From the NCBI RefSeq assembly GCF_048403405.1, contig NZ_CP183129.1: a stretch of 64,000 nucleotides of DNA. The stretch is one strand, 5' to 3'. Positions 1,032-63,553 of this stretch are shown piece after piece. The notes below the pieces were generated by a model. The model ran no database searches. It was given only the letters and a program-made list of their open reading frames with translations, and was not told where the DNA came from. A program made the translations under genes and the position numbers. This DNA is from Escherichia coli. GTDB taxonomy: Bacteria > Pseudomonadota > Gammaproteobacteria > Enterobacterales > Enterobacteriaceae. Each line of letters begins with the position of its first letter. The first letter of the stretch is position 1.

Positions 1032-1910
1032 ATGTTCACGGGAAGTATTGTCGCGATTGTTACTCCGATGGATGAAAAAGGTAATGTCTGTCGGGCTAGC
1101 TTGAAAAAACTGATTGATTATCATGTCGCCAGCGGTACTTCGGCGATCGTTTCTGTTGGCACCACTGGCGAGTCCGCTACCTTAAATCATGACGAACATG
1201 CTGATGTGGTGATGATGACGCTGGAGCTGGCTGACGGGCGCATTCCGGTGATTGCCGGAACCGGCGCTAACGCTACTGCGGAAGCCATTAGCCTGACGCA
1301 GCGCTTCAATGACAGTGGTATCGTCGGCTGCCTGACGGTAACCCCTTACTACAATCGTCCGTCGCAAGAAGGTTTGTATCAGCATTTCAAAGCCATCGCT
1401 GAGCATACTGACCTGCCGCAAATTCTGTATAATGTGCCGTCCCGTACTGGCTGCGATCTGCTCCCGGAAACGGTGGGCCGTCTGGCGAAAGTAAAAAATA
1501 TTATCGGAATCAAAGAGGCAACAGGGAACTTAACGCGTGTAAACCAGATCAAAGAGCTGGTTTCAGATGATTTTGTTCTGCTGAGCGGCGATGATGCGAG
1601 CGCGCTGGACTTCATGCAATTAGGCGGTCATGGGGTTATTTCCGTTACGGCTAACGTCGCAGCGCGTGATATGGCCCAGATGTGCAAACTGGCAGCAGAA
1701 GGGCATTTTGCCGAGGCACGCGTTATTAATCAGCGTCTGATGCCATTACACAACAAACTATTTGTCGAACCCAATCCAATCCCGGTGAAATGGGCATGTA
1801 AGGAACTGGGTCTTGTGGCGACCGATACGCTGCGCCTGCCAATGACACCAATCACCGACAGTGGTCGTGAGACGGTCAGAGCGGCGCTTAAGCATGCCGG
1901 TTTGCTGTAA
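1032..1910 (+). CDS. dapA: 4-hydroxy-tetrahydrodipicolinate synthase
   Basis: Track ORF 1014..1910 starts at TTG; ATG at 1032 gives [19 protein letters not shown]... (292 aa), class I aldolase DapA. Stop TAA 1908-1910. Confidence 0.95.
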
Positions 1911-1926
1911 AGTTTAGGGAGATTTG

Positions 1927-2961
1927 ATGGCTTACTCTGTTCAAAAGTCGCGCCTGGCAAAGGTTGCGGGTGTTTCGCTTGTTTTATTACTCGCTGCCTG
2001 TAGTTCTGACTCACGCTATAAGCGTCAGGTCAGTGGTGATGAAGCCTACCTGGAAGCGGCACCGCTTGCGGAGCTTCATGCCCCGGCTGGAATGATTTTG
2101 CCGGTGACCTCCGGTGATTATGCAATCCCGGTGACCAACGGTAGTGGTGCTGTCGGTAAGGCGCTGGACATTCGTCCACCAGCCCAGCCGCTGGCACTGG
2201 TTTCTGGCGCGCGTACCCAGTTCACGGGCGATACCGCTTCATTGCTGGTGGAAAATGGTCGTGGCAATACTCTGTGGCCGCAGGTGGTTAGCGTGCTGCA
2301 GGCGAAAAACTACACCATCACCCAACGTGATGATGCTGGTCAGACACTGACCACCGATTGGGTACAATGGAACCGTCTGGACGAAGACGAGCAGTATCGT
2401 GGTCGTTATCAAATCTCTGTTAAGCCGCAGGGTTATCAGCAGGCGGTTACGGTTAAACTGCTGAACCTGGAACAGGCGGGCAAACTGGTTGCAGACGCGG
2501 CTTCCATGCAGCGTTACAGCACGGAGATGATGAACGTTATTTCCGCCGGTCTGGATAAATCTGCCACTGACGCCGCGAACGCTGCGCAAAATCGAGCCTC
2601 CACCACTATGGACGTACAAAGTGCAGCTGATGACACCGGTTTACCAATGCTGGTCGTACGCGGGCCGTTCAATGTGGTTTGGCAACGTCTGCCAGCGGCG
2701 CTGGAAAAAGTGGGCATGAAAGTGACCGACAGCACCCGTTCGCAGGGCAACATGGCCGTAACTTACAAGCCGCTGTCTGACAGCGACTGGCAGGAACTGG
2801 GCGCGAGCGATCCAGGCCTGGCATCCGGTGACTATAAACTGCAGGTTGGCGATTTAGATAACCGCAGCAGCCTACAGTTCATCGATCCGAAAGGTCATAC
2901 TCTGACTCAGAGTCAGAACGACGCGCTGGTAGCTGTCTTCCAGGCTGCGTTTAGCAAGTAA
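1927..2961 (+). CDS. bamC: outer-membrane lipoprotein BamC (NlpB), BAM complex component
   Basis: ATG 1927 preceded by AGGGAGA; [28 protein letters not shown] has a lipobox (LAAC); 344 aa; 16 bp after dapA, consistent with a dapA-bamC operon. Confidence 0.92.
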
Positions 2962-2967
2962 AAATAC

Positions 2968-2995
2968 AGGGCTGGAGTCATCCGGCCCTTTTTTC
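2968..2995 (+). terminator. intrinsic terminator after bamC
   Basis: GGGCTGGA-gtca-TCCGGCCC stem (one G-U pair) followed by TTTTTT, 7 bp after the bamC stop. Confidence 0.7.
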
Positions 2996-3004
2996 TGATA
3001 TGAT

Positions 3005-3020
3005 ACGCAAACGTGTGCGT
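3005..3020. promoter_or_regulatory. PurR operator-like box upstream of purC
   Basis: ACGCAAACGTGTGCGT, a near-perfect palindrome matching the pur-box consensus (ACGCAAAC/GTTTGCGT), about 155 bp upstream of the purC ATG. Confidence 0.6.
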
Positions 3021-3065
3021 CGGCAGAAAAATGCGATTTTAGCGGTAATTCGCACAAAATTTGTT

Positions 3066-3110
3066 TGTCGGACGTAGGTCGGATAAGGCGTTCTTGCCGC
3101 ATCTGACAAA
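3066..3110. repeat. REP-type palindromic unit
   Basis: GACGTAGGTCGGATAAGGCGTT...GCCGCATCTGAC matches the REP family motif (GCCGGATGCGGCG / CTTATCCGGCCTAC type) in the bamC-purC intergenic region. Confidence 0.6.
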
Positions 3111-3173
3111 ACATCCGGCACACCAGACAGCAAAAGATTTTAAAACGTTAATTCACACCCAGGAGTGATAAAG

Positions 3174-3887
3174 ATGCAAAAGCAAGCTGAGTTGTATCGT
3201 GGTAAAGCGAAAACCGTATACAGCACGGAAAACCCGGACCTGTTGGTGCTCGAATTCCGCAATGATACGTCAGCAGGGGATGGCGCGCGCATTGAGCAGT
3301 TTGATCGCAAAGGTATGGTGAACAACAAGTTCAACTACTTCATTATGAGCAAACTGGCTGAAGCGGGTATCCCGACTCAAATGGAGCGTCTGCTCTCCGA
3401 TACCGAATGTCTGGTCAAAAAGCTGGATATGGTGCCGGTTGAGTGTGTCGTGCGTAACCGTGCTGCTGGCTCTCTGGTGAAACGTCTTGGAATCGAAGAA
3501 GGTATTGAGCTGAACCCGCCGCTGTTCGATCTGTTCCTGAAAAACGACGCCATGCACGATCCGATGGTCAACGAATCTTACTGCGAAACCTTTGGCTGGG
3601 TGAGCAAAGAGAACCTGGCGCGTATGAAAGAGCTGACCTACAAAGCGAACGACGTGCTGAAAAAACTGTTCGATGATGCTGGTCTGATTTTGGTCGACTT
3701 TAAACTGGAGTTTGGCCTGTACAAAGGTGAAGTGGTACTGGGCGATGAGTTCTCCCCGGACGGCAGCCGCCTGTGGGACAAAGAAACGCTGGAGAAAATG
3801 GACAAAGACCGTTTCCGCCAGAGCCTCGGTGGCCTGATCGAGGCCTATGAAGCCGTCGCCCGCCGCCTGGGTGTACAGCTGGACTGA
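3174..3887 (+). CDS. purC: phosphoribosylaminoimidazole-succinocarboxamide synthase
   Basis: ATG 3174 after AGGAG; [39 protein letters not shown]... (237 aa) is SAICAR synthetase. The track start at 3165 is an upstream GTG. Confidence 0.95.
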
Positions 3888-4054
3888 TTTTTCTGCTCAT
3901 CATCTTGCCGTGCAGCTGGCACGGCAAGACAACCGCTCTCGGAAGATGTGCATTGAACGCTCATTCCTCCGCCATTTCATCCCGCTTTCCTGTGGTAATC
4001 TTCCTCTGAACCACCTACGATCATTTCTATAATGAATATATTGTTGAGGTATCT

Positions 4055-4918
4055 ATGCGTTGGCAAGGGCGACGTGAAAGTGACAATGTTGAAGACAGGC
4101 GCAACAGCTCTGGTGGTCCGTCAATGGGCGGTCCAGGTTTTCGCCTGCCAAGCGGTAAAGGCGGGCTGATTTTACTGATAGTCGTGCTGGTTGCAGGTTA
4201 CTATGGCGTTGATTTAACCGGGTTGATGACCGGACAGCCGGTTTCCCAACAGCAATCAACACGGTCAATTAGTCCTAATGAAGACGAAGCCGCAAAATTC
4301 ACTTCGGTGATTCTGGCAACCACGGAAGACACCTGGGGACAGCAATTCGAGAAGATGGGTAAAACCTATCAGCAACCGAAGCTGGTCATGTACCGTGGAA
4401 TGACGCGCACCGGCTGCGGGGCGGGCCAGTCCATTATGGGACCGTTCTATTGCCCGGCGGATGGCACGGTTTATATCGATCTCTCCTTCTATGATGACAT
4501 GAAAGACAAACTTGGCGCGGATGGCGATTTTGCCCAGGGGTACGTTATCGCCCATGAAGTCGGTCATCATGTGCAGAAACTGTTAGGCATCGAGCCGAAA
4601 GTTCGTCAACTGCAACAAAACGCGACGCAGGCGGAAGTGAACCGCTTATCTGTGCGTATGGAACTCCAGGCCGACTGTTTTGCTGGTGTCTGGGGGCATA
4701 GTATGCAGCAGCAAGGCGTTCTGGAAACCGGCGATCTGGAAGAGGCGCTGAACGCGGCGCAGGCCATCGGCGATGACCGTTTACAACAGCAAAGTCAGGG
4801 GCGAGTAGTACCAGACAGTTTCACTCATGGCACTTCTCAGCAACGCTACAGCTGGTTTAAACGTGGTTTCGACAGCGGCGATCCGGCACAATGCAATACT
4901 TTTGGTAAAAGCATTTAA
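4055..4918 (+). CDS. ypfJ: putative zinc metallopeptidase-like membrane-anchored protein YpfJ
   Basis: Track ORF 287 aa; N-terminal TM segment ([15 protein letters not shown]) and HEXXH-type motif HEVGHH. Confidence 0.8.
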
Positions 4919-4932
4919 CTTCCGGGGCAGGG

Positions 4933-6948
4933 ATGGCTGAACTAACTGCGCTTCACACATTAACAGCGCAAATGAAACGTGAAGGGATCCGCCGCTTGCT
5001 GGTGTTGAGCGGGGAAGAGGGTTGGTGTTTTGATCATGCGCTTAAGTTGCGTGATGCCTTACCTGGCGACTGGCTGTGGATTTCGCCGCAGCCAGATGCT
5101 GAAAACCACTGTTCACCCTCGGCGCTACAAACTTTACTTGGGCGCGAGTTCCGGCATGCGGTATTCGACGCCCGCCACGGCTTTGATGCCGCTGCCTTTG
5201 CGGCACTTAGCGGAACGTTGAAAGCGGGAAGTTGGCTGGTTTTGTTACTCCCTGTATGGGAAGAGTGGGAAAACCAACCTGATGCCGACTCGCTGCGCTG
5301 GAGTGATTGCCCTGACCCTATTGCGACGCCGCATTTTGTCCAGCATCTCAAACGCGTACTTACGGCGGATAACGACGCTATTCTCTGGCGGCAAAACCAG
5401 CCGTTCTCGTTGGCGCATTTTACTCCCCGTACTGACTGGCACCCCGCGACCGGCGCACCACAACCAGAACAACAGCAACTCTTACAGCAGCTACTGACCA
5501 TGCCGCCGGGCGTGGCAGCGGTAACTGCTGCGCGTGGGCGCGGTAAATCGGCGTTGGCAGGGCAACTCATTTCTCGTATTGCGGGCAGTGCGATTGTCAC
5601 CGCGCCCGCAAAAGCGGCAACGGATGTACTGGCACAATTTGCGGGCGAGAAGTTTCGCTTTATTGCGCCGGATGCCTTGTTAGCCAGCGATGAGCAAGCC
5701 GACTGGCTGGTGGTCGATGAAGCCGCAGCTATACCTGCGCCGTTGTTGCATCAACTGGTATCGCGTTTTCCTCGAACGTTGTTAACCACTACGGTGCAGG
5801 GCTACGAAGGCACCGGACGTGGTTTTTTGCTGAAATTTTGCGCTCGCTTTCCGCATTTACACCGTTTTGAACTACAACAGCCGATCCGCTGGGCGCAGGG
5901 ATGCCCGCTGGAAAAAATGGTTAGTGAGGCACTGGTGTTTGACGATGAAAACTTCACCCATACACCACAAGGCAATATCGTCATTGCCGCATTTGAACAG
6001 ACGTTATGGCGAAGTGAGCCAGAAACGCCGTTAAAGGTTTATCAGCTATTGTCTGGTGCGCACTACCGGACCTCGCCGCTGGATTTACGCCGCATGATGG
6101 ATGCACCAGGGCAACATTTTTTACAGGCGGCTGGCGACAACGAGATTGCCGGGGCGCTGTGGCTGGTGGATGAGGGGGGATTATCTCAACAACTCAGTCA
6201 GGCGGTATGGGCGGGTTTTCGTCGCCCGCGGGGTAATCTGGTGGCTCAGTCGCTGGCGGCGCACGGCAGCAATCCTCTGGCGGCGACATTGCGCGGACGG
6301 CGGGTCAGCCGGATAGCAGTTCATCCGGCTCGTCAGCGGGAAGGCACAGGGCGGCAACTTATTGCTGGTGCTTTGCAATATACGCGTGACCTCGACTATC
6401 TTTCGGTGAGTTTTGGTTACACCGGGGAGTTATGGCGTTTCTGGCAACGCTGCGGTTTTGTGCTGGTGCGAATGGGTAATCATCGTGAAGCCAGCAGCGG
6501 TTGCTATACGGCGATGGCGTTGTTACCGATGAGTGATGCGGGTAAACAGCTGGCTGAACGTGAGCATTACCGTTTACGTCGCGATGCGCAAGCTCTCGCG
6601 CAGTGGAATGGCGAAACGCTCCCTGTTGATCCACTAAACGATGCCGTCCTTTCTGACGACGACTGGCTTGAACTGGCCGGTTTTGCTTTCGCTCATCGTC
6701 CGCTATTAACGTCGTTAGGTTGCTTAATGCGTCTGTTACAAACCAGCGAACTGGCATTACCGGCGCTGCGTGGGCGTTTACAGAAAAACGCCAGTGACGC
6801 GCAGTTATGTACCACACTTAAACTTTCAGGCCGTAAGCTGTTACTGGTCCGTCAACGCGAAGAAGCCGCGCAGGCGCTGTTCGCACTTAATTATGTTCGC
6901 ACTGAGCGTCTGCGCGATCGCATAACGCAATGGCAATTTTTTCACTGA
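4933..6948 (+). CDS. tmcA: tRNA(Met) cytidine acetyltransferase TmcA (YpfI)
   Basis: 671 aa; P-loop ARGRGKSA, helicase-like core and C-terminal GNAT-like region; starts 14 bp after ypfJ. Confidence 0.88.
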   Translation: MAELTALHTLTAQMKREGIRRLLVLSGEEGWCFDHALKLRDALPGDWLWISPQPDAENHCSPSALQTLLGREFRHAVFDARHGFDAAAFAALSGTLKAGSWLVLLLPVWEEWENQPDADSLRWSDCPDPIATPHFVQHLKRVLTADNDAILWRQNQPFSLAHFTPRTDWHPATGAPQPEQQQLLQQLLTMPPGVAAVTAARGRGKSALAGQLISRIAGSAIVTAPAKAATDVLAQFAGEKFRFIAPDALLASDEQADWLVVDEAAAIPAPLLHQLVSRFPRTLLTTTVQGYEGTGRGFLLKFCARFPHLHRFELQQPIRWAQGCPLEKMVSEALVFDDENFTHTPQGNIVIAAFEQTLWRSEPETPLKVYQLLSGAHYRTSPLDLRRMMDAPGQHFLQAAGDNEIAGALWLVDEGGLSQQLSQAVWAGFRRPRGNLVAQSLAAHGSNPLAATLRGRRVSRIAVHPARQREGTGRQLIAGALQYTRDLDYLSVSFGYTGELWRFWQRCGFVLVRMGNHREASSGCYTAMALLPMSDAGKQLAEREHYRLRRDAQALAQWNGETLPVDPLNDAVLSDDDWLELAGFAFAHRPLLTSLGCLMRLLQTSELALPALRGRLQKNASDAQLCTTLKLSGRKLLLVRQREEAAQALFALNYVRTERLRDRITQWQFFH

Positions 6949-7021
6949 CTCCTTCAATTTTCTCCCATGGTCATTGTGAGTCAGCGGCGTAAAATTAATG
7001 ACATCAGTTAAGGAGTTCGCC

Positions 7022-7720
7022 ATGAAACATGACCATTTTGTTGTTCAAAGCCCGGATAAACCTGCGCAACAGTTGTTACTGCTTTTCCACGGTGTCGGGG
7101 ATAACCCGGTGGCAATGGGGGAAATAGGTAGCTGGTTTGCACCGCTGTTTCCTGATGCGCTGGTGGTGAGTGTCGGTGGCGTGGAGCCGAGCGGTAATCC
7201 GGCGGGGCGTCAGTGGTTTTCGGTGCAGGGTATTACGGAAGATAATCGCCAGGCACGTGTGGATGCCATCATGCCGACGTTTATTGAAACGGTGCGCTAC
7301 TGGCAGAAACAGAGCGGAGTAGGGGCTAACGCCACGGCGCTAATCGGTTTCTCACAAGGCGCGATTATGGCGCTGGAGAGCATTAAAGCCGAACCGGGCC
7401 TTGCTTCGCGCGTCATTGCCTTCAACGGACGCTACGCGAGCCTGCCGGAAACCGCGTCTACAGCCACGACAATTCACCTGATTCATGGCGGTGAAGATCC
7501 TGTTATCGATCTGGCGCATGCGGTTGCGGCGCAGGAAGCGTTAATCAGTGCCGGTGGTGATGTGACGCTGGATATCGTGGAGGATTTAGGCCATGCGATC
7601 GACAATCGCAGTATGCAATTTGCCCTGGATCACTTGCGTTATACCATTCCGAAACATTATTTCGACGAAGCGCTAAGTGGCGGTAAGCCTGGCGATGATG
7701 ATGTGATTGAAATGATGTAA
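7022..7720 (+). CDS. ypfH: esterase/carboxylesterase YpfH (alpha/beta hydrolase)
   Basis: ATG 7022 gives MKHDHFVVQSPDKPAQQLLLLFHGVGDN...; nucleophile elbow GFSQG; the track start at 6998 is upstream in-frame. Confidence 0.85.
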   Translation: MKHDHFVVQSPDKPAQQLLLLFHGVGDNPVAMGEIGSWFAPLFPDALVVSVGGVEPSGNPAGRQWFSVQGITEDNRQARVDAIMPTFIETVRYWQKQSGVGANATALIGFSQGAIMALESIKAEPGLASRVIAFNGRYASLPETASTATTIHLIHGGEDPVIDLAHAVAAQEALISAGGDVTLDIVEDLGHAIDNRSMQFALDHLRYTIPKHYFDEALSGGKPGDDDVIEMM

Positions 7721-32448: not shown

Positions 32449-32452
32449 AAGT

Positions 32453-32574
32453 GTACGGACAGTCCCCTCGCCCCTTTGGGGAGAGGGTTAGGGTGAGGGG
32501 AACAGAGTCGCGCCGGTGCAAACAATTACCCTCACCCCGGCCCCTCGGCTTCCAGAGTGAGGGAAAAACCCACT
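32453..32574 (+). repeat. GC-rich multi-palindromic repeat, copy 2 (extended), between eutG and eutH
   Basis: Core 32455-32512 nearly identical to 19062-19110; further inverted arms GGGTGAGGG / CCCTCACCC / GTGAGGG within a 169-bp gap inside the eut operon. Confidence 0.6.
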
Positions 32575-32617
32575 TTCAGCATTGGCAATAAATAACAACT
32601 AACAGGGAGTAAAGGCG

Positions 32618-37534: not shown

Positions 37535-38194
37535 ATGCCAGCTTTAGATTTGATTCGACCGTCGGTCACCGCCATGCGGGTGATTGCCTCTGTTAACGCC
37601 GAATTTGCGCGTGAACTGAAATTGCCGCCGCATATTCGTAGCCTCGGGCTGATTTCTGCTGATTCCGATGACGTCACCTACATTGCGGCTGACGAAGCGA
37701 CCAAGCAGGCGATGGTCGAAGTGGTGTATGGCCGCTCGCTGTATGCGGGAGCTGCACACGGACCGTCACCGACTGCCGGTGAAGTGCTGATTATGCTCGG
37801 TGGGCCAAACCCGGCGGAAGTGCGTGCTGGTCTGGATGCGATGGTTGCGCATATTGAAAATGGCGCGGCTTTCCAGTGGGCTAATGATGCGCAAGATACG
37901 GCATTCCTGGCACATGTAGTTTCGCGTACCGGTTCTTATCTCTCATCAACCGCCGGGATCACGCTTGGCGATCCGATGGCGTATCTGGTGGCACCGCCGC
38001 TGGAAGCGACCTATGGCATTGATGCAGCCCTGAAATCTGCCGACGTACAGCTGGTGACCTATGTCCCGCCACCGTCTGAAACCAACTACTCGGCAGCATT
38101 TTTAACCGGTAGCCAGGCAGCGTGTAAAGCAGCCTGTAACGCCTTTACCGATGCAGTGCTGGAAATCGCGCGTAATCCAATCCAGCGTGCGTAA
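37535..38194 (+). CDS. eutL: EutL, tandem-BMC-domain (trimeric) shell protein
   Basis: 219 aa. Confidence 0.9.
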
Positions 38195-38206
38195 CGGAGG
38201 TTGCCG

Positions 38207-38707
38207 ATGATCAATGCACTGGGATTGCTGGAAGTGGACGGCATGGTCGCCGCGCTAGATGCTGCGGATGCCATGCTCAAAGCAGCTAACGTTCGTCTGC
38301 TCAGTCACGAAGTGCTTGACCCTGGTCGCCTAACGCTGGTGGTGGAAGGCGATCTGGCGGCGTGTCGTGCGGCGCTGGACGCAGGTTGTGCTGCCGCGAT
38401 GCGTACCGGGCGTGTCATCAGCCGCAAGGAGATCGGTCGGCCAGACGATGACACCCAGTGGCTGGTTACTGGCTTTAACCGCCAGCCTAAGCAACCCGTA
38501 AAGGAACCCGACGCGCCAGTTATCGTCGCGGAATCTGCTGACGAGTTGTTGGCGCTGTTAACATCAGTACGTCAGGGAATGACGGCAGGAGAAGTGGCTG
38601 CCCACTTTGGCTGGCCGCTGGAAAAAGCCAGAAATGCGCTCGAACAGCTCTTTTCTGCCGGGACGTTACGTAAACGCAGTAGTCGTTATCGTCTCAAGCC
38701 CCATTAA
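38207..38707 (+). CDS. eutK: EutK, BMC shell protein with C-terminal helix-turn-helix-like extension
   Basis: ATG 38207: MINALGLLEVDGMVAALDAADAMLKAANVRLL... (166 aa). The track start is TTG at 38201. Confidence 0.88.
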   Translation: MINALGLLEVDGMVAALDAADAMLKAANVRLLSHEVLDPGRLTLVVEGDLAACRAALDAGCAAAMRTGRVISRKEIGRPDDDTQWLVTGFNRQPKQPVKEPDAPVIVAESADELLALLTSVRQGMTAGEVAAHFGWPLEKARNALEQLFSAGTLRKRSSRYRLKPH

Positions 38708-38752
38708 CCTGTCGGAGGTGCCGGGTGTCCTACAACACCCGGCATTAACATC

Positions 38753-39805
38753 ATGAAAAAGACCCGTACAGCCAATTTGCACCATCTTTATCATGAACCC
38801 TTACCCGAAAACCTGAAGCTCACGCCGAAGGTCGAAGTGGATAATGTTCATCAACGACAGACAACGGATGTCTATGAACATGCTTTGACAATTACCGCCT
38901 GGCAGCAGATTTACGATCAGCTGCATCCGGGCAAGTTTCATGGTGAATTTACGGAAATTCTACTCGATGATATTCAGGTTTTTCGTGAATACACCGGTCT
39001 GGCGCTGCGTCAGTCGTGCCTGGTCTGGCCGAATTCGTTCTGGTTTGGCATTCCGGCGACGCGCGGTGAGCAGGGATTTATCGGTTCGCAATGTCTGGGA
39101 AGCGCAGAAATAGCGACGCGCCCTGGTGGAACCGAGTTTGAATTAAGTACGCCGGATGATTACACGATCCTTGGCGTAGTGCTTTCTGAAGATGTCATCA
39201 CCCGTCAGGCTAACTTTTTGCATAATCCGGATCGGGTATTACATATGCTGCGTAGCCAGTCGGCGCTGGAAGTGAAAGAGCAGCATAAAGCCGCGCTGTG
39301 GGGCTTTGTCCAACAGGCGCTGGCGACATTTTGCGAGAACCCGGAAAATCTTCATCAGCCTGCTGTGCGTAAAGTGCTGGGGGATAATTTGCTAATGGCG
39401 ATGGGGGCGATGCTGGAAGAAGCGCAGCCAATGGTGACGGCGGAAAGCATCAGTCATCAGAGTTACCGTCGGTTGCTTTCCCGCGCCCGTGAATATGTGC
39501 TGGAAAACATGTCTGAGCCGGTGACTGTGCTGGACTTGTGTAATCAACTGCATGTCAGCCGCCGCACGCTACAAAACGCGTTTCACGCTATTTTAGGCAT
39601 TGGCCCAAATGCGTGGCTGAAACGCATTCGCCTGAACGCCGTACGCCGCGAACTGATAAGCCCTTGGTCGCAAAGCACAACGGTAAAAGACGCCGCCATG
39701 CAGTGGGGATTCTGGCATCTGGGGCAATTTGCCACGGATTACCAGCAGCTGTTTGCCGAGAAGCCGTCGTTGACGCTGCATCAGCGGATGCGGGAATGGG
39801 GGTGA
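38753..39805 (+). CDS. eutR: EutR, AraC-family activator of the eut operon
   Basis: 350 aa; C-terminal AraC HTH (region around [33 protein letters not shown]). Confidence 0.9.
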
Positions 39806-39810
39806 GGGAG

Positions 39811-40713
<903 letters not shown>

Positions 40714-41583
40714 TTACCGCTTTCTCGAGTGTGCTTTCTGGTTGTCAAACCAGTGAAAATAACTGATCACGCCTTCGGCAATCGCTGTGGCGATTTTCTG
40801 GCGAAATGCCGCCGTGCCTAACAGCCGCTCTTCTTCCGGATTGGTGATAAACGAGGTTTCCACCAGCACCGAAGGAACCGACGGCGATTTCAACACCACA
40901 AACGCGGCTTGTTCGGTGTTGCGGCTGTGCAGTTTATGCACCGGCTTAATCTTCTTCAGAATATGCGAGCCGAGCGTCAGGCTGTTTTTAATAGTATCGG
41001 TTTGCACCAGATCAAACAGCACTTGCTGCAATAGGTGATCCTTGTCAGTCGCCTTTTTACCGGCAACTTCATCGGCGCGGTTTTCGCGTTCAGACAGGTA
41101 TTTCGCCATTGCGCTACTTGCACCGCGGTTAGAGAGGGCAAATACCGAAGCACCGGCAGCTTTCGGGTTGGTAAAGCCGTCGGCATGAATTGACATAAAC
41201 AGATCTGCGCCATGTTTATGGGCGATTTCAACGCGATCGTACAGTGGGATAAACGTATCGCCAGAACGCGTTAAACGCGCATCAATGCCATGATTACGCA
41301 AAATGGAACGGACGTTTTTAGCAATCGCCAGCACCACATGTTTTTCTTTCGAACCGTTGCGCCCGATCGCTCCGGTATCAATCCCGCCGTGGCCTGGATC
41401 GAGAACAACGACACGTTTGCCGCCAGATTTTTTGGCTTTCGGCTTGCTGTGTCCGTTGCTGGTTTTTAAAGGTTCGTCTTTGGCGATGGCTTGCGACATT
41501 CCTGACAACGTCAGCGCTGCAAGTCCGGCTTTCAGCACCTGGCGGCGCGAAGTGAGTGTTTTTAGTGGTTTAAAAGTGCTCAT
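40714..41583 (-). CDS. amiA: N-acetylmuramoyl-L-alanine amidase AmiA (Tat-secreted)
   Basis: 289 aa; twin-arginine signal (SRRQVLKAGLAAL); amidase_3 domain; amiA-hemF are adjacent on the same strand. Confidence 0.92.
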   Translation of the reverse strand: MSTFKPLKTLTSRRQVLKAGLAALTLSGMSQAIAKDEPLKTSNGHSKPKAKKSGGKRVVVLDPGHGGIDTGAIGRNGSKEKHVVLAIAKNVRSILRNHGIDARLTRSGDTFIPLYDRVEIAHKHGADLFMSIHADGFTNPKAAGASVFALSNRGASSAMAKYLSERENRADEVAGKKATDKDHLLQQVLFDLVQTDTIKNSLTLGSHILKKIKPVHKLHSRNTEQAAFVVLKSPSVPSVLVETSFITNPEEERLLGTAAFRQKIATAIAEGVISYFHWFDNQKAHSRKR

Positions 41584-41796
41584 ACGGCCTGAGTTGTAAT
41601 AATAAAGTTCCAGATGTTATATCGTATCGCGTAATCCGTTACGACCGTTTGCTGTTGAGAATTGTTTTACTTTTCATTTCAATAGTTGACAACTCCCCAT
41701 TATGCCACTTTTTCAACCGATTTTCGTCAGATATTGGCTAATTCGACCGTTCACGCCATAATCAGCCTTTTAACCCGCAAAAAGGTAACGAATACC

Positions 41797-42222
41797 ATGG
41801 AGATACGCGTATTTCGCCAGGAAGATTTCGAAGAGGTCATCACCCTTTGGGAGCGTTGCGACTTGCTGCGTCCGTGGAACGATCCGGAAATGGACATCGA
41901 GCGTAAGATGAACCATGACGTCAGTTTGTTTCTGGTCGCTGAGGTGAACGGTGAAGTGGTCGGAACGGTGATGGGCGGTTATGACGGGCATCGCGGGTCT
42001 GCTTATTATCTTGGCGTGCATCCAGAGTTTCGTGGGCGTGGGATTGCTAATGCGTTGCTTAATCGGTTGGAGAAAAAGCTGATTGCTCGCGGCTGCCCGA
42101 AAATTCAGATCAACGTGCCGGAAGATAACGACATGGTGCTCGGAATGTATGAACGCCTGGGATATGAACACGCCGACGTGCTGAGTCTGGGTAAGCGTTT
42201 GATTGAAGATGAAGAGTACTGA
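41797..42222 (+). CDS. ypeA: GNAT-family N-acetyltransferase YpeA
   Basis: ATG 41797: [29 protein letters not shown]... (141 aa); the track ORF is extended upstream. Confidence 0.85.
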
Positions 42223-42658
42223 GTTTCATCCTGTCCATTATGATGCACACGGTCGCCTGCGTTTACCCTTGCTCTTCTGGTTTGTGCTATTGCTTCAGGC
42301 GCGAACCTGGGTGCTGTTTGTCATTGCCGGTGCGTCGCGCGAGCAGGGTACTGCGCTGCTAAATCTGTTTTATCCCGATCACGATAATTTCTGGCTGGGG
42401 TTGATTCCCGGCATTCCGGCGGTGCTGGCGTTTTTGCTGAGTGGTCGGCGGGCTTCATTTCCCCGTATCTGGCATGTGCTCTATTTTCTGTTGCTGTTGG
42501 CGCAGGTGGTTTTACTTTGCTGGCAACCGTGGCTGTGGCTGAACGGTGAATCCGTTAGCGGTATCGGGCTGGCGCTGGTAGTGGCGGATATTGTGGCGTT
42601 AATCTGGCTGCTGACCAATCGACGTTTACGCGCTTGTTTTAATGAAGAAAAAGAATAA
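42209..42658 (+). CDS. yfeZ: inner-membrane protein YfeZ
   Basis: [29 protein letters not shown]...; four predicted TM segments; start overlaps the ypeA 3' end. Confidence 0.8.
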
Positions 42659-52857: not shown

Positions 52858-53769
52858 GTGAGTACATTAGAACAAACAATTGGCAATACGCCTCTGGTGA
52901 AGTTGCAGCGAATGGGGCCGAATAACGGCAGTGAAATCTGGTTGAAACTGGAAGGCAATAACCCGGCAGGTTCGGTGAAAGATCGTGCGGCGCTTTCGAT
53001 GATCGTCGAGGCGGAAAAGCGCGGGGAAATTAAACCGGGTGATGTGTTAATCGAAGCCACCAGTGGTAACACCGGCATTGCGCTGGCAATGATTGCCGCG
53101 CTTAAAGGCTATCGCATGAAATTGCTGATGCCCGACAACATGAGCCAGGAACGCCGTGCGGCGATGCGTGCTTATGGTGCGGAACTGATTCTTGTCACCA
53201 AAGAGCAGGGCATGGAAGGTGCGCGCGATCTGGCGCTGGAGATGGCGAATCGTGGCGAAGGAAAGCTGCTCGATCAGTTCAATAATCCCGATAACCCTTA
53301 CGCCCATTACACCACTACCGGGCCGGAAATCTGGCAGCAAACTGGCGGGCGCATTACCCATTTTGTCTCCAGCATGGGAACAACCGGCACCATCACCGGC
53401 GTGTCACGCTTTATGCGCGAACAATCCAAACCGGTGACCATTGTCGGCCTGCAACCGGAAGAGGGCAGCAGCATTCCCGGCATTCGCCGCTGGCCTGCGG
53501 AATATCTGCCGGGGATTTTCAACGCTTCGCTGGTGGATGAGGTGCTGGATATTCATCAGAGCGATGCGGAAAACACCATGCGTGAACTGGCGGTGCGGGA
53601 AGGAATATTCTGTGGCGTTAGCTCCGGCGGCGCGGTTGCCGGAGCACTGCGCGTGGCAAAAGCTAACCCCGGCGCGGTGGTTGTGGCGATCATCTGCGAT
53701 CGCGGCGATCGCTACCTCTCCACCGGCGTGTTTGGGGAAGAACACTTTAGCCAGGGGGCGGGGATTTAA
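52858..53769 (+). CDS. cysM: cysteine synthase B (O-acetylserine sulfhydrylase B)
   Basis: GTG start 52858: (M)STLEQTIGNTPLVKLQRMGP... (303 aa), PLP enzyme; the track ORF from 52780 runs through the REP/terminator and is unlikely to be translated. Confidence 0.9.
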   Translation: MSTLEQTIGNTPLVKLQRMGPNNGSEIWLKLEGNNPAGSVKDRAALSMIVEAEKRGEIKPGDVLIEATSGNTGIALAMIAALKGYRMKLLMPDNMSQERRAAMRAYGAELILVTKEQGMEGARDLALEMANRGEGKLLDQFNNPDNPYAHYTTTGPEIWQQTGGRITHFVSSMGTTGTITGVSRFMREQSKPVTIVGLQPEEGSSIPGIRRWPAEYLPGIFNASLVDEVLDIHQSDAENTMRELAVREGIFCGVSSGGAVAGALRVAKANPGAVVVAIICDRGDRYLSTGVFGEEHFSQGAGI

Positions 53770-53771
53770 GA

Positions 53772-54231
<460 letters not shown>

Positions 54232-63334: not shown

Positions 63335-63553
63335 ATGGAAAAAGAGCAGCTGATTGAAATAGCCAATACGATAATGCCGTTTGGCAAATACAAAGGGCGT
63401 CGCTTAATCGACCTGCCGGAGGAGTATCTTCTGTGGTTTGCCCGCAAAGATGAGTTCCCGGCAGGGAAGCTCGGTGAGCTAATGCAAATCACGCTGCTGA
63501 TTAAAACTGAGGGGCTGACGCAACTGGTCCAGCCCCTGAAGCGTCCTCTTTAA
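63335..63553 (+). CDS. ypeB: DUF3820-family small protein YpeB
   Basis: 72 aa, MEKEQLIEIANTIMPFGKYKGRRLIDLPEEYLLWFARKDEFPAGKLG...; starts 1 bp after the ligA stop. Confidence 0.8.
   Translation: MEKEQLIEIANTIMPFGKYKGRRLIDLPEEYLLWFARKDEFPAGKLGELMQITLLIKTEGLTQLVQPLKRPL

Follow-up and report, generated by a model that had tools for sequence, protein, structure and literature searches.

The last gene of the eut operon, eutR, and the oxygen-dependent coproporphyrinogen oxidase gene hemF point towards each other in Escherichia coli with five base pairs between their stop codons. The question raised by this locus is how the two transcripts end and whether the overlap of their 3' ends has a role. 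The junction was analysed within the window, the whole stretch of 64,000 nucleotides of contig NZ_CP183129.1. The original prediction for this DNA was that the spacer leaves no room for terminators on either side, that the two transcripts must overlap, and that transcriptional interference or antisense pairing between the eut regulator and the amiA-hemF operon could result. The parts of this proposal have different fates and are treated below with the evidence that bears on each.

Direct reading of the sequence and the RefSeq annotation agree on the convergence of eutR and hemF and on the size of the gap, as predicted (Table 1). On the + strand the junction reads ATG CGG GAA TGG GGG TGA / GGGAG / TTA CAC CCA ATC CCT GAC. 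The identities given to the genes are upheld by equivalog models of NCBIfam: EutR matches its model over the entire length (1-350/350, 790 bits), HemF aligns with NF003727 up to the last profile position (294/294, 473 bits) and AmiA is recognised with 580 bits. EutK is also matched by an NCBIfam equivalog model. Gene eutR closes the eut operon, which the window strain has in intact form starting with eutS. On the opposite strand, the short distance between amiA and hemF fits an amiA-hemF operon. A consensus scan of positions 38000-42500 finds no terminator-like site in the amiA/hemF intergenic sequence, and the two genes are probably co-transcribed.

Table 1. Features of the eutR-hemF junction in window coordinates.
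Feature	Position	Strand	Description	Basis
eutR CDS	38753-39805	+	350 aa, AraC-type activator	ORF list, NCBIfam NF007522, RefSeq
eutR stop codon TGA	39803-39805	+		direct sequence reading
Spacer GGGAG	39806-39810		5 bp, between both stop codons	direct sequence reading
hemF stop codon TAA (tta on the + strand)	39811-39813	-		direct sequence reading, ORF list
hemF CDS	39811-40710	-	299 aa as annotated, oxygen-dependent coproporphyrinogen oxidase	RefSeq (length 900 nt)
amiA CDS	40714-41583	-	3 bp upstream of the annotated hemF start (40710)	NCBIfam NF007652 (580 bits), RefSeq
Imperfect palindrome across both stop codons	39792-39824	both	loop GGGAG	folding of 39785-39832
C-rich, G-poor tract in the eutR run-on RNA, predicted Rho loading region	39813-39890	+	30 C, 12 G and 17 YC dimers in 78 nt	
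C-rich, G-poor tract in the hemF run-on RNA, antisense to eutR	39369-39446	-	32 C, 11 G and 20 YC dimers in 78 nt	
Weak terminator-like site antisense to hemF	40347-40371	+	stem of 5 bp followed by GTTTTTCGGC, some 540 nt beyond the eutR stop	
Window equivalent of MG1655 position 2554640	39280-39295	-	approximate, the published position deriving from 800-nt windows	mapped via the hemF stop

The same 5-bp gap is found in the RefSeq annotation of a K-12-like strain, of MG1655 (hemF at 2553225-2554124 on the + strand, eutR at 2554130-2555182 on the - strand) and of TUM14771, a strain identical to the window over a 1-kb query around the junction. The region is present in 5424 of 5426 complete E. 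coli genomes, and a 121-bp junction probe aligns across the junction in at least 4831 of them, with spans of equal length and without indels among the matches listed. An annotation artefact, in which one of the frames ends earlier and the true gap is larger, has a negligible chance of accounting for the arrangement and was rejected. Both proteins match their profiles to the last position, and the C-termini are conserved in length and sequence across genera, with the consensus MR[EQ]W[GA] for EutR and VRDWV for HemF, each directly followed by the stop codon.

A spacing of 5 bp is unremarkable in E. coli, where tight junctions are common. Gaps between convergent coding sequences were taken from the annotation of the window region and of two arbitrary 50-kb stretches of MG1655, giving a sample of 24 pairs. 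The window region has gaps of -4 (ypeB/yfeH), 2 (cysM/yfeK), 5 (eutR/hemF), 42, 80, 88, 98 and 102 bp; the first two were confirmed in window coordinates and are both tighter than eutR/hemF. Gaps in MG1655 are -38, -4, -4, 31, 44, 69, 75 and 114 bp between 1.00 and 1.05 Mb, and -4, 35, 39, 39, 43, 56, 195 and 220 bp between 3.00 and 3.05 Mb. A gap of at most 5 bp or an overlap is hence found in 7 of the 24 pairs.

The predicted overlap of the eutR and hemF transcripts can hardly be avoided when both units are transcribed, because each mRNA must include its own stop codon. Overlap of this kind is the norm for convergent E. coli operons and does not distinguish this locus: Conway et al. 2014 (PMC4161252) counted 3' overlaps for 276 of 370 convergent operons of E. 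coli K-12 (75%), with a mean length of 286 nt. The complementary 3' ends are a trait shared with those operons. The difference is that the transcripts of eutR and hemF overlap because their spacer has only 5 bp, and not because of a leaky terminator.

The statement that there is no room for terminators holds for the spacer but not for the coding ends on its two sides, which form an imperfect hairpin (Table 1). The consensus scan reveals no intrinsic terminator, defined as a hairpin followed by a T-run, in the roughly 500 nt that follow each of the two stop codons. Terminator-like matches between positions 38000 and 42500 number 7, against 5.5 +/- 2.6 in shuffled sequences; there is no excess of matches, and the significance of the weak site antisense to hemF is doubtful. 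A scan with Rfam models at gathering thresholds gives no match in the whole 64-kb window.

The junction hairpin has a folding energy of -17.8 kcal/mol (z -1.3) in the RNA of the + strand and of -15.6 kcal/mol (z -1.7) in that of the - strand. These values are not significant, 15-19 of 200 shuffled sequences folding as well. The stem is interrupted by two internal mismatches and is followed by UGACCUUA in the + strand RNA and by GCAUCCGC in the - strand RNA, the U-tract being missing in both. The palindrome exists because of the codons for the two protein ends, REWG in EutR and RDWV in HemF, which share the pattern R-[E/D]-W-[G/V] before the stop. In Escherichia L005, whose spacer is ATAAA and still 5 bp long, the hairpin is weaker (-10.6 and -9.6 kcal/mol) and no compensatory changes are found. 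The idea that the hairpin is a selected structure was set aside on account of its non-significant z scores, its coding origin and its weakening in L005, and is retained as a minor rival explanation only.

According to this rival, the palindrome is either an overlapping bidirectional terminator, acting through the combination of head-on collision with a stem-loop, or a stabiliser of 3' ends, where exonucleases trim Rho-terminated RNA back to the hairpin. The mature overlap would then be about 30-45 nt. The hairpin can indeed form on both strands, with the spacer at its centre of symmetry, and MG1655 and other E. coli sequences share it. According to bioRxiv 10.1101/2022.10.23.513370, Ju et al. 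2019 describe bidirectional terminators different from intrinsic ones for many convergent E. coli pairs, and in that account these terminators share with eutR/hemF the position between the genes and a stem-loop in both directions. However, the stem-loop is here weak, derived from coding sequence and unmatched by a listed 3' end, and the genes are lowly expressed. The same preprint reports collision-driven termination to be less efficient for lowly expressed pairs, and the eutR and hemF units are low in standard media. The Term-seq tables of Adams et al. 2021 (PMC7815308), which cover K-12 in three growth conditions, list no 3' end at the junction (none at MG1655 2553900-2554499) and none under hemF or amiA, whose expression is low. 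This absence of a discrete 3' end fits diffuse ends of the Rho type and speaks against termination at one defined site of the junction. We regard a function of the palindrome in termination or stabilisation as unlikely. The supplements of SMRT-Cappable-seq contain no entries for the eutR/hemF genes.

A second fold was inspected and discarded: a long-range stem pairing 39760-39773 with 39843-39855 (101-nt fold, z -2.27) is broken without compensation in K-12, L003 and L005, and is attributed to lineage-specific chance.

Published data on K-12 identify the factor that ends transcription on the hemF strand. Supplementary file 2 of Adams et al. 2021 (PMC7815308) reports DirectRNA-seq of MG1655 with and without bicyclomycin and includes a Rho termination region at MG1655 2554640 on the + strand, classified as 'antisense eutR'. 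Reads upstream and downstream of this position are 78 and 18 without bicyclomycin and 102 and 106 with it (Rho score 4.50, p 8.9e-8); the counts of 78 and 18 are low, and K-12 is about 95% identical to the window and not the window strain. Measured from the hemF stop at 2554124, it lies 516 nt downstream, inside the antisense of eutR, which supports the overlap on the hemF strand. The equivalent place in the window is also that of a weak terminator-like hairpin (39294-39280). Transcription on this strand is ended by Rho in K-12, and the RNA terminated at the published site is presumably run-on RNA of amiA-hemF, although an internal antisense promoter may instead be its source. In the K-12 dataset, read-through that increases on inhibition of Rho is seen on the hemF strand alone. 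Entries antisense to hemF or amiA are absent from the Rho table, and the eut operon is silent in the LB used. A lacZ fusion directly after the eutR stop codon was built in E. coli 536 as a reporter of eut operon transcription (PMC10710832), indicating that this transcription does leave eutR.

The run-on RNAs of both units carry a C-rich, G-poor tract that is located downstream of the last stop codon of the transcript and antisense to another gene (Table 1). Rho has C-rich, G-poor untranslated RNA as its established substrate, and the RNA of both tracts is presumably untranslated. The tract that follows eutR has a C/G ratio of 2.38, which corresponds to the 99.7th percentile of all 78-nt segments of the 64-kb window and likewise of the subset of segments antisense to coding sequences. 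The tract antisense to eutR, 365-442 nt past the hemF stop, has a ratio of 2.75, the maximum among the segments antisense to coding sequences in the 64-kb window, whose median is 1.14. It is a probable Rho loading region and lies 75-150 nt upstream of the mapped Rho termination position. The first 78 nt past the hemF stop have a ratio of 1.78. Of the 60 coding sequences of the window, no other than hemF shows a tract of this kind in the 200 nt antisense to its 3' end. Both tracts are found at equal offsets in MG1655, L004 and L005. RNA with the composition and length of a Rho-dependent terminator (C-rich and G-poor over about 70-80 nt or more) is present on both strands. An excess of C over G is also a general property of antisense RNA, so that part of the signal of the tracts is generic.

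We favour the explanation that eutR and hemF meet at an ordinary convergent junction, deprived of terminator and of REP, where run-on RNA is stopped by Rho inside the opposite gene; we consider this likely. Polymerases that pass the end of eutR would enter the antisense strand of hemF, and those that pass the end of amiA-hemF would enter the antisense strand of eutR. Beyond each stop codon the RNA would be untranslated and open to Rho. The factor would load on the tract adjacent to eutR in one direction, and on the first 78 nt past hemF together with the tract antisense to eutR in the other. It would stop transcription a few hundred nucleotides into the opposite gene and generate diffuse 3' ends. 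The two units would overlap at their 3' ends with no need for a dedicated regulatory role. For the run-on RNA of eut, the termination by Rho inside hemF is suggested by base composition.

The alternative put forward in the original prediction is that the overlap is a regulatory device resembling an excludon. In that case hemF would be lowered when eut is induced, or the basal level of eutR would be damped by transcription of amiA-hemF, through collision of polymerases or cleavage of RNA duplexes by RNase III. Overlapping transcripts are unavoidable, as discussed above, and, the eut operon being intact, polymerases that start at eutS under induction can get as far as the junction. The occurrence of antisense RNA opposite amiA-hemF is documented: RNase III duplexes captured with p19 in MG1655 (PMC7373196) include one inside hemF, which maps exactly to window positions 40390-40410, just beyond the weak terminator-like site antisense to hemF, and a cluster of double-stranded RNA in amiA classified as 'New AS' (new antisense), at about 41143-41163. 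However, some p19 signal comes from 87% of E. coli genes in this assay, which makes the duplexes unspecific; among the table rows covered, the entries for hemF and amiA are at least 579 nt from the junction and none is for eutR. Run-on RNA is moreover limited by Rho, and unrelated genes elsewhere are joined by equally tight junctions. Within the library of papers searched, both eutR and hemF are named by a strain-construction paper and a survey of microcompartment loci, neither of which reports a link between their expression. No support was found for the idea that eut and amiA-hemF affect each other by interference or antisense control, and a regulatory device at this position appears improbable. 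A further point against it is that the arrangement is not fixed among the Enterobacteriaceae.

A scan for EutR with one genome per species yielded 63 loci, and wherever hemF is near eutR the two genes are convergent. The distance between the stop codons varies. It is 5 bp in Escherichia (E. coli, L004 and L005), 8 bp in a Pluralibacter metagenome-assembled genome and 19 bp in Intestinirhabdus. In Citrobacter, Klebsiella, Salmonella and Pseudocitrobacter it is mostly 54-150 bp, with larger values in four loci. The spacers of 54-150 bp consist of one or two REP palindromes, of the GCCGGATG...CATCCGGC and AGGCCTGATAAG... types, that fold with energies of -20 to -70 kcal/mol. The spacer of the window is only GGGAG and holds no REP palindrome of about 35 nt of the GCCGGATG...CATCCGGC type. 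From these sequence comparisons the bare junction is mainly an Escherichia state. Insertions are found at the same place within this genus: E. whittamii has a 1.8-kb insert with genes for a TacA-type antitoxin and a GNAT protein and an ORF of 223 aa, and the enteropathogenic strain EPEC E2348/69 has a 5958-bp insert coding for four proteins, of which one has 223 aa, one is SNF2-related and one is a DUF1963 protein. These inserts and the REPs of the sister genera indicate that abutment of the stop codons is apparently not required.

The tract antisense to hemF differs between these groups, with C/G ratios of 2.2-3.1 in Escherichia against 1.2-1.7 in most of the REP-bearing relatives. The higher ratio of Escherichia is due to fewer C at third codon positions and to AGG replacing CGC as arginine codon, and could reflect either a strengthened Rho site or only the lower third-position G+C content of E. 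coli. A compensatory evolution of Rho loading sites is not claimed. A single lineage is involved and two genera go against such a pattern, Pseudocitrobacter having a REP and a ratio of 2.4, and Intestinirhabdus a 19-bp gap and a ratio of 1.3-1.4. A more elaborate scenario would be that Escherichia has no REP spacer, having lost it or never gained it; that the hemF and eutR coding sequences were recoded at their 3' ends, largely by synonymous changes, giving unusually strong sites for the loading of Rho on the run-on RNA of the opposite unit; and that the residual overlap lets induced eut damp the oxygen-dependent HemF. We find this very improbable. If it were true, damping of HemF by eut would tie the use of ethanolamine to the choice of enzyme for haem synthesis.

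The eutR/hemF junction is a feature of an already known kind. Rho-terminated convergent and antisense transcripts (Peters et al. 2012, as reported by a citing paper; PMC7815308) have the same untranslated RNA with a C-rich, G-poor tract upstream of the zone of termination. The hemF strand is bicyclomycin-sensitive like the antisense RNAs terminated by Rho, with no sharp 3' end listed, and its entry 'antisense eutR' is one row among many similar ones in the table of PMC7815308. Compared to usual antisense RNA, the excess of C over G in the eutR/hemF tracts is more extreme, reaching at least the 99.7th percentile; there is otherwise no difference of substance. REP and BIME elements between convergent genes are proposed to be combined 3' terminators and stabilisers of mRNA (bioRxiv 10.64898/2026.03.23.713779). 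Such REPs occupy the orthologous spacer in four genera, in contrast to the 5-bp spacers of Escherichia, which have none.

The locus offers a textbook-type case of convergent genes that have no terminator, with run-on transcription and its clean-up by Rho. A practical consequence is that the insertion of a reporter or cassette at the eutR-hemF junction, as in E. coli 536, alters the 3' context of both units. If the C-rich tracts are selected Rho loading sites within coding sequences, they would be a modest addition to what is known of termination signals embedded in genes. For the family, the REP-filled spacers of Citrobacter, Klebsiella and Salmonella provide a natural comparison for the role of REPs at convergent 3' ends.

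In the sister genera Citrobacter, Klebsiella, Salmonella and Pseudocitrobacter (eutR loci L007-L040), the spacer between eutR and hemF is 54-150 bp long and is made of REP palindromes, one or two per spacer and often forming an inverted pair. The number and orientation of these palindromic repeats vary among species, and therefore REP turnover at this spacer is rapid. Coordinates of this and the other features are collected in the table.

Larger inserts separate the two genes in Escherichia whittamii (1784 bp) and in EPEC E2348/69 (5958 bp). The products of the EPEC island are a 1149-aa SNF2-related protein, a DUF1963 protein and two hypothetical proteins, one of 223 aa and one small; its 223-aa ORF equals that of the E. 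whittamii insert in length. In the same EPEC strain, a truncated eutC adjoins a Mu-like prophage.

Features at the eutR-hemF junction and elsewhere in the window
Feature	Sequence	Coordinates	Strand	Remarks
Example REP spacer between eutR and hemF stops	L012 (sister-genus locus)	4054-4146		
Insert	L006 (E. whittamii)	4060-5843		
TacA-type antitoxin gene	L006 insert		hemF strand	Pfam PF08681, 88.6 bits
GNAT-like gene	L006 insert		hemF strand	Adjoins antitoxin gene; weak match, under Pfam cut-off
223-aa ORF	L006 insert		hemF strand	No Pfam match
Island	L072 (EPEC E2348/69)	1483-7440 (NZ_LT827011.1 2666482-2672439)		
HemF VRDWV arginine codon	window	39820-39822		4th hemF codon from end
Out-of-frame 99-aa ORF	window	39613-39912	+	GTG start
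eutG-eutH gap	window	32449-32617		169 bp, non-coding
cysM / yfeK	window	ORF end 53769 / 53772-54140	+ / -	Convergent; stop to stop 53767-53774
ypeB / yfeH	window	63335-63553 / from 63550	+ / -	Convergent; overlap 63550-63553
p19-captured duplexes in hemF	window	40390-40410		
'New AS' cluster in amiA	window	~41143-41163		

In Escherichia and in the Pluralibacter and Pseudocitrobacter MAGs, the arginine of the HemF C-terminal VRDWV is encoded by AGG, which E. coli seldom uses for this residue; Citrobacter, Klebsiella and Salmonella have CGC or CGT. The residue before VRDWV likewise differs between the groups (K versus Q).

The 99-aa ORF crossing the eutR/hemF junction has no RefSeq annotation and is probably spurious. 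Two other tightly spaced convergent pairs lie in the window: cysM and yfeK, whose 2-bp gap is tighter than that of eutR/hemF, and ypeB and yfeH, which overlap by 4 bp, the sequence TTAA being common to both ends. The RefSeq annotation of a near-identical strain leaves a gap between eutG and eutH, and the genes of the remainder of the eut operon are tightly packed.

In MG1655, RNase III duplexes captured by p19 were mapped within hemF, and amiA holds a dsRNA cluster listed as 'New AS' (PMC7373196). Together they establish that antisense RNA opposite amiA-hemF exists, 0.6-1.3 kb away from the eutR/hemF junction. Its source may be either run-on transcription from eutR or an internal antisense promoter.
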